Below, in pieces: positions 16,101 to 20,599 of a stretch of DNA of 64,000 bases. This DNA is from Iphione sp. A-MEVVRFRX5 (lineage: Eukaryota). A model generated the notes under the pieces. That model saw only the letters and a list, made by a program, of their open reading frames with translations. It searched no databases and was not told where the DNA came from. The position numbers and the translations under genes were made by a program. The DNA lies in NCBI GenBank assembly GCA_976226885.1, contig OZ320314.1:85312001-85376000 (forward strand), read 5' to 3'. Numbering within the stretch: the first letter of the stretch is position 1; each line of letters begins with the position of its first letter.

Positions 16101-19100
16101 TAGCATATCCCTTCTAAAGTGGTTACAAAGTTTCATGGCAAGTCTGTCACATGACCCAAGGATGACTATAAATATGGGTCCTGTGTGGCCAATAAAATCA
16201 GTTTGGAATTGGACTCACTTGTGGACATTACCTTCTGGGAAGCCTACAGGGAATACACCCACTTGGATTACCTTGGGAGTGGAAACAGGGACATGGCTTA
16301 CCACAGTTAAAGGATTTACTAAGGCAGTACAGCCAAAGGAGATACCTGGAGTACCCTCAAGTAGTAGATATGCCATAGTAGGATAACACTTACAGGAAAT
16401 ATTCCCAAGGAGATTACAGTACACACAAGATCTTCCATTCCAAGTTTCAAAGCTTTCACTGTATGCCAATCTTTCATTTACAAAGGCTGTCCAACACACG
16501 TTTATAACAAAATGGTAATAAGGTTATAAAAATTAGGAAAATCAAATGAAGAAGGTTATTCTAGTGGAAAGAACATGATTAAGATCATAAACAATTGGCA
16601 ACTGCTCGTATCTGAATTCCTGCCTTAACTAATTACAGTCAGAGTCCGAATGGGCGCCACTTCATGTAATATTGATCGTATTTTTCGGATTATGGAATGT
16701 TTAATTTTGTGGCCTCAGGCCATATTCTACACTACCATATCAGCAAGTTCTTTGGCTACATGTGCACCAACCAGTACTTTTCAAAGAAGTGCCGTCCTAC
16801 GTGTGACCTACTGTAGTTATTGACAGAGAATCCAGTCCCACTAACTTAGAACACAGGTATGCACATTCAAATAAAATGCCTGGTGTCACTGCTCACCCTA
16901 CAATACCCAGTGACCCCCATTGTTGAGGAAGCGTCAGTGAGGTCTTGCGGTGGAAATGGGTACATGCACATTTGGTTTGTGAGTCAGCTCATATGTAATT
17001 TACGAAAATGTGGCTGTTCGTATTAAGAGATTTGTATGTATGAGTATGTTTATATGGAAAATGCTTGTAGACAGTAAAAAGTATACTAAAACTGATTTCA
17101 TTCAGTTTTCGAGGCTATAGATGTCAAATTTTGACTATACACGTATAAATAACATGTGGATAACTGTCAACTGACCTATGCAGGTTAATATACTGAGACA
17201 TCAAACGCCCCCCCCCCCCCACACAACCAGGTTTGGAGGGCCATCATGTCCTCCGACTCATACTGGAGTGGGACGTCATCGCTGTCATCCTCGAACATGA
17301 CCCCTCCTGTGAAGCGAGTGGTAGCACTGCGAGGTACTGGGAAGAAGGTAGCCGCGATGGGAGCTACTAAGTGAACCGGAAAGAAGGACAAACACAGCGA
17401 TCCAGAGAGGCCAAGTGTCCAACCATCAGTTGACAGTGGGCCGACAGCGATCGCCAGCCCTTTGGGGCTGGATCTGCCTACCAAGGCCCACCAAGCTGAG
17501 GGTGATATGGCTCCAGCTGCCAAACTCCAGAGAAGACACTCCTGGTCTGCAGGAGAGACCAATTTCGATCCTGTGAAATTCCTAGCCAGCAACCGGGACG
17601 TACAAGCATAGGGAGAAGTCAAGGTGGTAGATGCTACTGATGAAGCAGTAACCACGCCTGCAACCATGGGTATTCTGGTCTCTCAATTCTCAATAATAGA
17701 TGGTAGTATGCTAATCCAGGAGAATATTGAAGAGCCTTGTCCTGATGATAGGTGAATATATTCCTGGTTAAAGATACTGTAGTGGAGCAGCACCGACTTG
17801 CTCCGCACATCCTGTACATAAATAGGAACCGCACCGTTATTGCTCCATACGAGCTGTTCTAAGTTGCTCCTTGCAACTGGTTCTAGTTAGTTGGCTCCGC
17901 ACGTAACATTTGTGTATAAAAAGAGTCACTGTGCAGAGCTCGCTGTCAGTTGAGGTTTGGACTTTCTTGAATTAACATCTTAAACTTACCCTTCTGGAGT
18001 GGACATCAGTATGTTGAGATCTGGTCACAACAATACAATGAATTGAAATGAAATCTACAACTAGTGAGCAGTTAGCCTGTGGTCAGTTATTCAAATGTTG
18101 AAGACATCTCAGAGGCCAGCAAGACGGAGGCCCAAAGGAGTGTACGGGTAGAGAGAGTGGCTGATACCTCTAGGCCAGCCGAGTCAGTGGTGCACAAGGA
18201 CATGTTGCCTCCCATGGGCAGCGCCACACTGATGGACTTGCCAGCCAACAACACCACCACCATGGTGCCTGGTGGAGCCAGAAGCAGACACTCTCTCAAG
18301 CGAGGGTGACCCACCCCATGTTACCTGTGCAGCCCAGTGTCAAACAGTTCCCCCATCAACCTAGTGCACCAAGAATGTGGCCCCGCTGCTCCCCACATCA
18401 GGTGATGGGATGGCGTCCAAGAGTGTGGCACCAAAGACTCTCCCCCTATCTGGAGATGTGATGGCAGTGGCATCTGAGCCTGCAAACGAGGATGAGCCTT
18501 AAGAGTTGATCACACACCGGGACAGGCAGCCCCAAAACGCGGGCTGACAAGCAGCCTGTGACCAAGGACAATGGGTGCCAATAGAAGGCTTTCCCAATTA
18601 CCATGATCACGTTGAGAGCAGGGACCAAGCAAGATGAGGAACTGCTGCTAGAGGGCAGGCTCCTGCGACCCGACCAGGAGTTAGTAATCCAAGGTGCTGG
18701 GGCAGCGCCTAGTGCAGAAAACCCTAAGAGGGAGGAGCTCCACCCCTCAGACATCCTGGTTCCAGCTACAACAGCTTCAACCTCTGGGCAGGTCCAGGTA
18801 AGGCCTTTGACTGTGATGGCACACCACAGACAGGCCTAGGCCGGGGCTTCATCGTCAACCATGGGGAGCGGGCAAACCCAGGCTCGGCTTGCAGCAGGGT
18901 GCACCCCCAACTGCCCTACTGCAAGGGTGACACCACAGATGATGCTGCAACAACCTAATCCATGATCCCTGCCATCACCTCCAGGAGTACTTGTACACCA
19001 GGTCACTGGCACAATACATTGCATGGATGGGGACCAACCCCCAGGGCTGGTCACCACAAAGCTGTTGGTACTGTGGGCTGTGGCCACAGTTATCACCACC

Positions 19101-20599
19101 AACTCGCCCTCTCATCCTCATTGGACAATCATCAGAGCTGAAGGTCAGATCCACACCCAGCTGTTGGGTGACCTATTCCAACTGTCCGTAGACCAGACTG
19201 TGAACTTTCAGAGCACCGGACCTGGTTCTTTCCTCTTCATTTGGGTCTGGCATTTCAATTGAGCAGCTAGGTTAGAGGGGCTGCGCCTGCAGATGCTTAA
19301 TGACTCTTGGGGGTACGAGGAGACCCAACCCTGCCAGCTGCGGGTCCATATCAAAGAACTGTTTTCAGTGACGATCACCAACTAAAGTATGGCTGTTTCA
19401 GTGTCCTCTAGGGTGTATTCTTTCCCTCTGGAAGGTCAGTAGTGCCTTTATCTCCTCTTCTGGGAGCGTTGCAAGATTTTCAGACCGTCCATCCTGGGAA
19501 GTTCACTAGATACAGCGTTTTTGTCTCTACATATGGGGGATTCAGCCTCTCTCCTTCTGGGAGAGTTTTAGTTCAAGCAGACAGAGCGTGTCTCACCAGC
19601 TTGCTAGCCACCTGTCTCCGGCTCCCATGTACTTGGGATTCTTCCCCTCCTAGCAGGGGCTTTCCTACTACCAATATTGAGTTGTTCTGGTCTTATTACT
19701 CCTGTACTGGAGGGATTATTTGATTAGTACTCTCTGATGTACTTCTTCAGCTGGGAACTTGTACTAGTTCTCTGTGTAACTGTATTGCATGTTGGGCCAT
19801 AACCTGGTGCCCCCTAAGGAGTTGTTTGTCTTGCTTGTTTCTTAGATAATTGTTGACTGTTAGTCAGGAGGATGGTTCTACCTCCTCAGGTGACTGTTGA
19901 GGTCAGACTGTTCACTGGGATGGGTGAATTTAAATAGGGGGGAGTGTAGCACGAGTGCGGGGAGTATGTGCAGGGAGTGTGTGCAAGGAATGAGTGTGGT
20001 GTGCGGGGATGATTGAGCAGGTGTGTGTGTGAATGTGCGGGGATTTTTCAGTCGTTGTCCAGAGTTCATGCAATAAACATCTTGTGATTGGATTACTGAG
20101 TCATGAGTCTTTGTAGAGGCAAGCTTCACAACAATACTATAATTGACTAGGTGGTTGTCCTTGGACAAAAAGTGAAAACTTCTTTTTCCGATCACTGATT
20201 CATATGAACTGTTTTCCTCGCCTGCTGTTCCATGGCATGTACCTACGACCCAACAAGGTTAGGGCTATCTAAAGTGGTACTCAGTGACTACAAACTGTAT
20301 ATTTGGCCATTAATATTTACAAATTACCTTTGCCTTTGGCCAAACTTTCATCTAGGCTTAGACTTTTATGTGCAGCTGACTTAGGAAGTGGATGTCTCCT
20401 GACATGAACACACACATGAAATCAGAATTTGCTTCAACTCTGCTGATAACAAACCGATGTTCAGATGAAAATATGGAGGAATATAGGGAAATATAAAGAA
20501 ATAGATCAGTTTGAGGTCTTGGGTGAAACAGTTGAAAGAGCGCCGTGTGTGAAATATTTTCGCTTACTTCTTAGATTTCTCGGGGTTTTTACTGCCCAT
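1136..20599 (-). CDS. RPAP2: RNA polymerase II subunit B1 CTD phosphatase RPAP2 (Rtr1 family), partial at the 3' end. Exons: 20568-20599, 13308-13422, 7148-7246, 5048-5113, 4793-4926, 2817-3732, 2251-2372, 1136-1216
   Basis: Phase-compatible GT-AG exons translate to [36 protein letters not shown]..., [52 protein letters not shown] (Rtr1/RPAP2 zinc-binding domain), [19 protein letters not shown] and [26 protein letters not shown]. These match recalled human RPAP2 motifs. Exon 1 is the least certain (good Kozak aacATGG, GTAAGC donor, correct phase). Terminal exon(s) were not found in 1-1135. Confidence 0.93.
1345..1660. mobile_element. MITE-like non-autonomous repeat, copy 1 (boundaries approximate)
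   Basis: Sub-terminal inverted motifs tttctggtaac ... catgttactggaaa; a similar internal sequence recurs at about 15165-15475. Confidence 0.5.
4532..4690. mobile_element. Degraded Tc1/mariner-type MITE end
   Basis: Begins TA-CAGTGGAACTCCTCT, a typical Tc1/pogo MITE terminus; a similar start tacagtggagctc lies near 6565. No clear partner TIR. Confidence 0.3.
8520..11100 (-). mobile_element. Degenerate DIRS1-type tyrosine-recombinase retrotransposon in RPAP2 intron 3 (boundaries approximate)
   Basis: RT-like [21 protein letters not shown]...[10 protein letters not shown]...LAYMADLLL (10153-10632); DIRS-like [22 protein letters not shown] (about 9540-9630, with stops); recombinase C-terminus [27 protein letters not shown] (8573-8767). 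Many stops and frameshifts. Confidence 0.8.
11970..12640 (-). other. Two tightly packed intronless AT-rich ORFs of unknown origin
   Basis: ORF 12453-12638 ([15 protein letters not shown]...) is followed about 10 nt later by an ATG ([17 protein letters not shown]) that appears to frameshift into the 130-aa ORF 11970-12362. No recognisable domain. Confidence 0.3.
15165..15475. mobile_element. MITE-like non-autonomous repeat, copy 2 (boundaries approximate)
   Basis: aggcctagtaaaaaatatgtttctggtaac ... tttttcaacatgttaccagaaa; shares sequence with 1345-1660. Confidence 0.5.
15652..15992. repeat. Array of six palindromic GCTTGGGTAC-NN-CCAAGC-type hairpins
   Basis: Copies at about 15652, 15716, 15792, 15839, 15912 and 15975, with a higher-order period of about 120 bp. 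Confidence 0.85.
16560..17100 (-). mobile_element. Highly degenerate DIRS/Ngaro-like remnant (RNase H and recombinase C-terminal traces)
   Basis: [13 protein letters not shown] near 16940 (RNase H TDAS motif) and GLRPQN*TFH...GRNSDT near 16600-16730 (recombinase-like), in broken frames. Confidence 0.3.
17225..20133 (+). mobile_element. Old Gypsy-type LTR retrotransposon 3' half: decayed accessory ORF, PPT and 3' LTR (19945 to about 20130-20133)
   Basis: Polypurine tract AGGGGGGAG directly precedes TGTAGC...CATGCAATAAAC...ACA. The reading frame at 19023-19385 is homologous to the C-terminus of the accessory ORF of the 40665-49419 element. TATAAAAA at 17915-17922. 5' LTR and gag-pol were not found. 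Confidence 0.65.

Follow-up and report, generated by a model that had tools for sequence, protein, structure and literature searches.

Why should two elements in the same 64,000-nucleotide stretch of Iphione sp. DNA (the whole stretch analysed, hereafter the window) end in protein sequences that look alike, when their DNA does not? The earlier note, which compared the translations by eye, had proposed a conserved but unrecognised C-terminal domain in the accessory ORFs of two Gypsy elements. The two translations, which lie where it had placed them, align with a Smith-Waterman score of 71 under BLOSUM62, with 24 identities in 101 aligned residues, and 0 of 5000 shuffles reach that score (mean 25.9, SD 4.3, maximum 51, z 10.4). 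Across the 64 kb, taken as 2124 six-frame windows, the best non-self match of each copy is the other copy (71-72, against 49-51 for the best unrelated match). The DNA of the two copies gives a local score of only 20 where shuffled sequences average 18.6 and reach 27, so DNA-level similarity is absent and the conservation resides in the protein, as had been claimed. A profile built from natural copies recovers both (E 3.9e-24 and 1.6e-46). Each carries one in-frame stop inside the domain.

The two elements are preserved very differently (Table 1). The minus-strand element and its intact relatives have what defines Ty3/Gypsy (Metaviridae) elements, namely gag, protease-RT-RNaseH-integrase, LTRs, a PBS, a polypurine tract and a target duplication; in the window copy the LTR pair is 92% alike, the target duplication is 4 bp long and the domain is 82-87% identical to that of its own family. 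The plus-strand copy is a 3' remnant that retains only tail, polypurine tract and 3' LTR, and within the window tblastn found no fingers, pol or gag upstream of its tail. Its domain is about 50% identical to that of the L069/L070 family. The description as two Gypsy elements thus holds directly for the minus element, whereas the assignment of the plus remnant to Gypsy is based on its relatives and its 3' LTR.

Table 1. Features of the two domain-bearing elements, in window positions.
Feature	Positions	Strand	Evidence
Decayed disordered tail of the plus element	17237..19031	+	tblastn pieces 17237-17617, 18891-19382
Terminal domain, plus remnant copy; stop 19260-19262, frame end 19383-19385	19032..19385	+	alignment, profile
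Polypurine tract and 3' LTR of plus remnant, three GTGCGG sites; end approximate	19932..20132	+	
3' LTR of minus element, four GCGGAG sites	40665..40869	-	
Terminal domain (41063-41443) and short C-terminal end; stop 41336-41338	41030..41443	-	alignment, profile
Met at 43420, two C2H2 fingers, helical segment, acidic stretch, disordered tail; interrupted copy	41444..43420	-	
Internal promoter-like linker cassette: GCGGAG sites, CCAAT 43782 and 43752, TATA 43717	43700..43900	-	
gag and protease-RT-RNaseH-integrase of Gypsy element, with stops and frameshifts	44297..49250	-	
5' LTR of minus element, three GCGGAG sites	49215..49419	-	

Intact relatives in this genome show where the domain belongs. 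It forms the last ~115 residues of a Pol frame of 2,000-2,950 codons, in which protease-RT-RNaseH-integrase is followed by a linker, a Met, two C2H2 fingers, a disordered tail and the domain; gag occupies an ORF of its own upstream. In all 18 domain-bearing long loci, which were selected for long frames, a frame of 2,028-2,951 codons ends in the domain, and the four Pol frames scanned each contain protease, RT, RNaseH and integrase. Eight domain-bearing families, 19-53% identical, occur in this genome, and in every one a Met lies no more than 12 residues before finger 1; an RT-IN tree with outgroup did not resolve the deepest branching among the families, and Rfam gave no matches in 4 loci. 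We regard it as virtually certain that the domain is real and Pol-terminal. The term accessory ORF needs revision, since intact relatives have the domain at the end of Pol; it stands only in the sense of a unit that probably has an internal promoter and a start codon of its own. The linker (~60-380 codons) is poorly conserved, but every intact copy examined keeps the in-frame fusion of Pol and tail, and no family tested has a closed or out-of-frame linker, which suggests that the fusion itself matters. Another finger-bearing ORF of this genome, L095, lacks the domain, so finger-bearing regulators do not need it.

In six within-family pairs the dN/dS of the domain is 0.04-0.12, a range that leaves aside the L069/L070 pair, where dS is saturated; this is strong purifying selection, comparable with 0.03-0.10 in RT-IN and set against 0.36-0.67 in the linker, where dS is lowered in some pairs. 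W, P, Q, G and E occupy invariant or near-invariant columns, with no invariant catalytic set. AlphaFold models from two query families agree on an alpha-beta-beta-alpha-beta-beta sandwich (pLDDT 83.6 and 90.9), and the earlier view of a real functional domain gains from both the selection and the predicted fold.

It has no name in the collections searched. The two window copies have no match in Pfam (one at E 0.28), and 25 members gave three stray single-member matches that do not amount to a family assignment; the best matches among PDB sequences are at E 0.58-1.4. A profile search of 1.84 billion representatives returned eight matches at E<=0.001, all rejected because they are repeat proteins whose single stretches score <=11 bits. 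Word-indexed searches found the domain in 0 of 7,997 candidates and the finger region in 0 of 179, and the domain is in none of the best 120 of 991 integrase relatives; the collections searched hold few animal transposon proteins, and these negatives extend no further than that. P0014 resembles the elements in its Pol/finger/disordered arrangement, but the profile does not match it (probability 0.2%). The ESM Atlas gave nothing, or bacterial leads below 0.9 only, metagenome and viral contigs gave no loci, and the main text of open papers yielded no description of the domain or of this architecture. The domain is a new 113-residue family with a confidently predicted model, which makes it suited to structure determination, and is as unrecognised in the databases searched as it was at first sight.

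Comparison of the predicted fold with known structures gave weak likenesses. Across 48,161 chains VIA-align found none at Z>=8; the best matches, a phage tail terminator (9mu2_D, Z 7.0, rmsd 3.7 over 100 residues) and an S6 permutant (6i6y_A, Z 6.9, rmsd 4.1 over 84), are both weak, and PilO (2rjz_B) gives Z 6.2 with rmsd 3.0 and 82 aligned. These are permuted-ferredoxin alpha-beta-beta repeats with the same order of helices and hairpins as the model, but at Z below 8 and 5-11% identity they indicate a common arrangement and are no evidence of kinship or function. Foldseek found nothing in the PDB at E<=0.001. In BFVD the match with the best E (6e-4) has a TM of 0.35; an uncharacterised protein of Pithovirus (TM 0.57, E 4e-3) is a lead only.

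In all eight representatives, from 7 families, a short word is enriched in both LTR and linker. It agrees with the target predicted for the fingers and changes with the finger residues, the family classes having GCGGAG, GTGCGGGG and TGCGAG. Among the 6-mers that LTR and linker have in common, the top one is GCGGAG for L061 and L078, GTGCGG for L069, L072 and L081, and TGCGAG for L073; the motif test does not include L091, where the search for a 5' LTR gave none. None of 300 shuffles reaches the GCGGAG and TGCGGG counts in their own families, while the TGCGAG enrichment was assessed by a Poisson test only. No sites occur in the LTRs of unrelated Gypsy and Copia elements in the window. GCGGAG occurs 9 times in the LTRs of L096 and 10 times in those of L099 (0 of 300 shuffles), though in both it is also frequent across pol, at 7.6-8.5 per kb. 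The word of L099 was forecast from its fingers before inspection and GCGGAG was found, an easy blind test because L099 is a 48% relative of L096.

Finger 2 carries R-1, D+3 and R+6 in all eight representatives. Finger 1 carries N+3 and R+6 in the four GCGGAG families, R+3 and R+6 where the word is GCGGGG, and R+3 and K+6 where it is GCGAG. According to tables in PMC7317221 and PMC5260015, RSDDLVR reads GCG, RSDNLVR reads GAG and KRERLDR reads GGG, and by these rules finger 2 is predicted to read GCG and finger 1 GAG or GGN. The covariation of fingers and word consists of only two changes, among related families. A reading of A by K+6 has no citable rule behind it, and the GT kept 5' of the GCGGGG word is not accounted for by two fingers.

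In 4 of 7 families the linker resembles a promoter, with CCAAT and TATA boxes followed by an ATG-free leader before the Met; the stretch from the minus element's cassette to its Met is likewise ATG-free, with the same spacing in L061, L065 and L066. The linkers of L069/L070, L073 and L081 show no clear cassette of this kind.

From this evidence we propose that the tail is a self-regulator resembling the Tas protein of foamy viruses, which we hold to be quite probable, and that its terminal domain likely oligomerises the two-finger protein, whose predicted targets are the LTR and internal promoter of the element that encodes it, a reading that, taken whole, we place slightly below an even chance. 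The internal promoter would yield a subgenomic mRNA for a finger/disordered/domain protein of 720-1,140 residues, which would bind clustered 6-bp sites upstream of TATA boxes and gain avidity by self-association through the terminal domain, while short tail motifs would tune transcription, probably activating it. A Pol-fused form would also be made, from which the element's protease may cut the tail; the integrase may carry the reader as a fusion. The oligomer role is suggested by the position of the domain, by analogy and by the absence of catalytic residues, and self-association as its main job seems to us marginally favoured. More broadly, and more tentatively, an env-less Gypsy clade may encode a transcription factor for its private use within the Pol frame, with a two-finger reader that co-evolved with the family word and is oligomerised by a new domain family.

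The absence of catalytic residues would also suit a monomeric effector at the far end of a disordered tail, a compact predicted fold docking on a host co-activator, chromatin or a silencing factor; the tail would still be a self-regulator, and the phospho-site-like TPxxSP or LATSTP motif in the tails of all eight representatives fits such a role. Identity between family groups in this one host is 19-30%, more divergence than one conserved host partner would imply, and we think this unlikely. The kept in-frame fusion, despite so poorly conserved a linker, can instead be read as a sign that the tail is part of the integrase, with the fingers holding the element's own cDNA and the domain tethering the integration complex to target chromatin in the manner of a chromodomain, and the flanks do suggest AT-rich 4-bp target duplications. 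Yet the linker is weakly constrained as protein, and the lowered dS in some pairs, the promoter boxes, the ATG-free leader and the Met kept before finger 1 all count against this alternative, as do sites that cluster upstream of TATA boxes and not only at LTR tips; we hold it to be quite unlikely.

The match of fingers and words could also be coincidental, the words being Sp/KLF/EGR-type sites for host factors (GGGCGGAGT resembles the Sp1 box) and the tail doing other work such as RNA export, as in CERV or Rev. CERV is a precedent, a nuclear accessory protein of a Gypsy element with a predicted multimerising domain and a part in RNA export (PMC10309623). But the Sp1-type 5' [GT]GG is present at only 12 of the 66 GCGGAG sites and at none of the 74 in other classes, the word switches with the finger-1 residues, and sites occur in both orientations and in U3, which makes this, too, quite unlikely. 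Finally, the domain occupies the position that env has in other elements and weakly resembles ring-forming phage tail terminators, as might the remnant of an envelope or of a structural protein (env, matrix or capsid-like). The earlier note had itself raised a known env or gag fragment; the domain is neither, with no match to an env or gag family in Pfam. None of the eight tails has a stretch able to span a membrane (at most 13 hydrophobic of 19 residues), the domain follows C2H2 fingers in tails with basic, NLS-like runs, gag is encoded separately upstream, and the domain is predicted to be mostly beta where the capsid fold is all-helical, so that a remnant of this kind is highly improbable.

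If the self-regulator is as we propose, timing and copy number are under the elements' own control, and sister families escape cross-talk through changes in one or two finger residues and a promoter word. Families that are related and share a genome would then each have an insulated lock-and-key circuit, providing a small natural series for the study of protein-DNA co-evolution.

Among known systems, chromoviruses likewise have an extra domain at the end of Pol, a chromodomain that follows the C-terminal domain of integrase; the extension here is ~1,000-1,430 aa long with its own Met and fingers, and no chromodomain is present in the four Pol frames scanned. Complex retroviruses, foamy viruses among them, encode DNA-binding transactivators of their own; for simple Gypsy elements the literature searched gave no such report. 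CERV of C. elegans Cer1 is similar in being a Gypsy-type nuclear accessory protein with structured domains without clear relative, one of them predicted to multimerise, but its mRNA is spliced and its role lies in RNA export, and C2H2 fingers or an LTR word are not described in the accessible part of PMC10309623. The working analogue is foamy virus Tas/Bel1, a regulator likewise encoded by a retroelement downstream of its core genes; its response elements lie in LTR U3 as well as in an internal promoter, and Tas is reported to dimerise (PMC3798896 and, for the layout, PMC7828637). The candidate here differs as a predicted C2H2-pair DNA reader whose promoter lies inside an open Pol frame, in elements with no env, and at 720-1,140 aa it is larger than Tas (200-310). 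Candidate response elements common to LTR and internal promoter, the arrangement that characterises Tas, are found in all eight representatives of the seven families.

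The domain noted at two places in the window is real. It is under selection, could be modelled with confidence, and is unnamed. Both translations were found where the earlier note had put them, and their alignment (24/101 identical) scored 71, which none of 5000 shuffles equalled (mean 25.9, maximum 51). In a comparison with 2124 six-frame windows, either copy has the other as its top match apart from itself. There is indeed no obvious DNA identity between them, as DNA similarity is not above shuffled, and each copy has one in-frame stop. The copies had been ascribed to accessory ORFs of two Gypsy elements. 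The minus copy does belong to such an element, ordered gag, protease, RT, RNaseH, integrase and then a C2H2 finger match, but the plus copy is a remnant with no pol or gag near it by tblastn.

Coordinates of the domain copies, their elements and other features (window positions unless a locus is named)
Feature	Position	Strand	Remark
Plus copy of domain	19032..19385	+	
Minus copy of domain	41063-41443	-	
Decayed Gypsy element, LTRs	40665-40869 and 49215-49419	-	domain copy at its 3' end
Tail pieces of plus copy	17237-17617 and 18891-19382	+	tblastn
Polypurine tract and 3' LTR of plus remnant	19932 to about 20132	+	
Unrelated Gypsy element	31367-36621		1,388-codon gag-pol frame, without tail
Copia element	59088-63710		LTRs 98% identical, without tail
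43-nt tandem array	52254-52700		
Palindromic MITE-like element	38491-38744		
Apparent gag ATG at U5 end	49215-49250; L061:316-365	- (window)	also L069, L073, L081
Insertion flanks opening with ATA	40665 and 49419		also L061, L062, L068, L078
~55-nt 3' untranslated stretch	L069:9385-9445; L073:9420-9480; L081:9220-9280		

The conserved domain stands, but the separate ORF does not. Searches of the same genome (1.18 Gb; at least 150 scored matches each, so that copy and family counts are lower bounds) gave at least 8 domain families, 19-53% identical within the domain. In 18 domain-bearing loci, a sample chosen for long frames, the domain ends a frame of 2,028-2,951 codons. All four frames scanned contain protease, RT, RNaseH and integrase. 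The two fingers can be made out in each of them, with matches at E <0.05 in three. The same order recurs throughout: integrase is followed by a linker of about 60-380 codons, then by a Met at most 12 residues from finger 1, the C2H2 finger pair (to which a conserved extension and helix are attached), a long disordered tail and finally the domain. In intact copies the domain is thus the end of Pol rather than an ORF by itself. Another finger-bearing element of the genome ends in the domain (E 2e-9) and fits the finger code set out below; a different ORF, also checked, is without it. The layout is shared by P0014 (ENA, 2315 aa), a Gypsy Pol of different origin in which integrase, linker and Met precede a C2H2 pair and an acidic disordered tail, but its C-terminal region does not match the domain.

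AlphaFold2 was run on two alignments of natural copies (26 and 25 rows), each with a query from a different family, and returned domain models (pLDDT 83.6 and 90.9; pTM 0.77 and 0.79) with a common core of helix, long hairpin, helix and long hairpin. No match among 48,161 chains reached Z 8 and none stands out, the best being a phage tail completion protein (Z 7.0, rmsd 3.7, 100 aligned), an S6 permutant (Z 6.9, rmsd 4.1, 84 aligned) and PilO (Z 6.2); Foldseek gave nothing firm. No credible relative appeared in Pfam, PDB sequences, 1.84 billion representatives, word-indexed searches, ESM Atlas or contig collections, libraries thin in animal transposon proteins, and the domain was in 0/120 integrase relatives among the matches listed. 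Within these collections it has no existing name, as the earlier note supposed, and it is neither of the env or gag fragments considered there. Its invariant or near-invariant columns (W, P, Q, G, E) are not a catalytic set. There is no membrane segment in the tails, and subsets of families have SUMO-interaction-like, [FY]EDIS, [FW]xPxEFLAxL and TPxxSP motifs there. In the literature searched, no paper was found that deals with the domain or with a C2H2 regulator at the end of a Gypsy Pol. The main text of a 2026 survey of Gypsy elements that bear env uses neither 'zinc finger' nor 'C2H2' (PMC13524379).

In six within-family pairs, dN/dS was 0.04-0.12 for the domain, 0.03-0.10 for RT-RNaseH-integrase, 0.01-0.29 for the fingers and 0.16-0.34 for the disordered tail. 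In a seventh, L069/L070, tail silent sites are saturated, yet pol is 97% alike (dS 0.28), a hint of module exchange that suggests recombination swapping tail or pol modules. The linker, at 0.36-0.63 in the six pairs and at 0.67 in both L069/L070 and L061/L068, is better read as DNA than as protein. CCAAT and TATA boxes occur in the linkers of L061, L065/L066, L096, L099 and the minus copy, with no ATG in any frame from TATA to finger Met. No clear cassette was seen in those of L069/L070, L073 and L081, where the Met is nevertheless preceded by 290-680 nt free of any ATG; pol has 9-15 ATG per kb.

Unbiased 6-mer comparison of LTR with linker gave one shared word in each representative compared: GCGGAG in L061 and L078, GTGCGG(GG) in L069, L072 and L081, and TGCGAG in L073, the last by Poisson test only (2e-5). 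L061 has 6 sites in its 195-nt LTR and 20 in its linker, counts equalled by 0/300 shuffles, and 0.3 per kb in pol. The window copies carry words of their own classes, and the window's unrelated LTRs have none. In L096 and L099, GCGGAG is enriched throughout pol (7.6-8.5 per kb), not in promoters alone.

The fingers are predicted from their sequences to bind these very words when the N-terminal finger is placed on the 3' triplet; the 5' GT conserved in the GTGCGG(GG) class is left over. Finger 2 has R-1, D+3 and R+6 in 8/8 representatives; finger 1 has N+3 and R+6 in GCGGAG families and R+3 and R+6 in GCGGGG families. In L073, K replaces R+6 and A replaces G at the corresponding word position. 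Published finger tables assign RSDDLVR to GCG, RSDNLVR to GAG and KRERLDR, which resembles the R+3, R+6 finger 1, to GGG (PMC7317221, PMC5260015). The L099 word was predicted before its DNA was read, and its LTR then showed 10 GCGGAG; this covariation comprises only two switches among kin families, and L099 is close to L096.

Several side features accompany these elements. The ~55-nt 3' untranslated stretch is almost invariant in 8/9 loci of three families whose domains are 35-48% alike, and was not found in the window remnant or in L091; with two short predicted hairpins and no Rfam match, it is a candidate packaging, dimerisation or export element. The gag frame apparently begins within the LTR and reads through the primer-binding site, with an MSLRSG start common to several families. 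The ATA flanks suggest an ATAN-type 4-bp target preference.

Its context suggests that the domain belongs to a transcription regulator encoded by the element, within which its own role is probably oligomerisation. The repeated words could instead be host-factor sites, but a host Sp1 reading, scored with the Sp1 consensus, fits 12/66 GCGGAG sites and 0/74 others; on that alternative the tail would act in RNA export, the role reported for CERV (PMC10309623). The tail might also tether integrase, which would agree with a Pol fusion that is always kept in frame, or the domain might dock a host cofactor.

Most likely, a subgenomic mRNA would make a finger/disordered/domain protein that binds the clustered sites of internal promoter and U3 and regulates transcription. 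Since two fingers read six bases only, the protein would have to self-associate to gain avidity over repeated sites. The terminal domain may provide for this, as nothing else beyond the finger module is a folded candidate. The whole chain, from regulator tail to oligomerising domain, we put forward tentatively, as falling just short of probable. The system to which we liken it is foamy virus Tas, which is reported to regulate transcription through internal promoter and U3 sites (PMC3798896).
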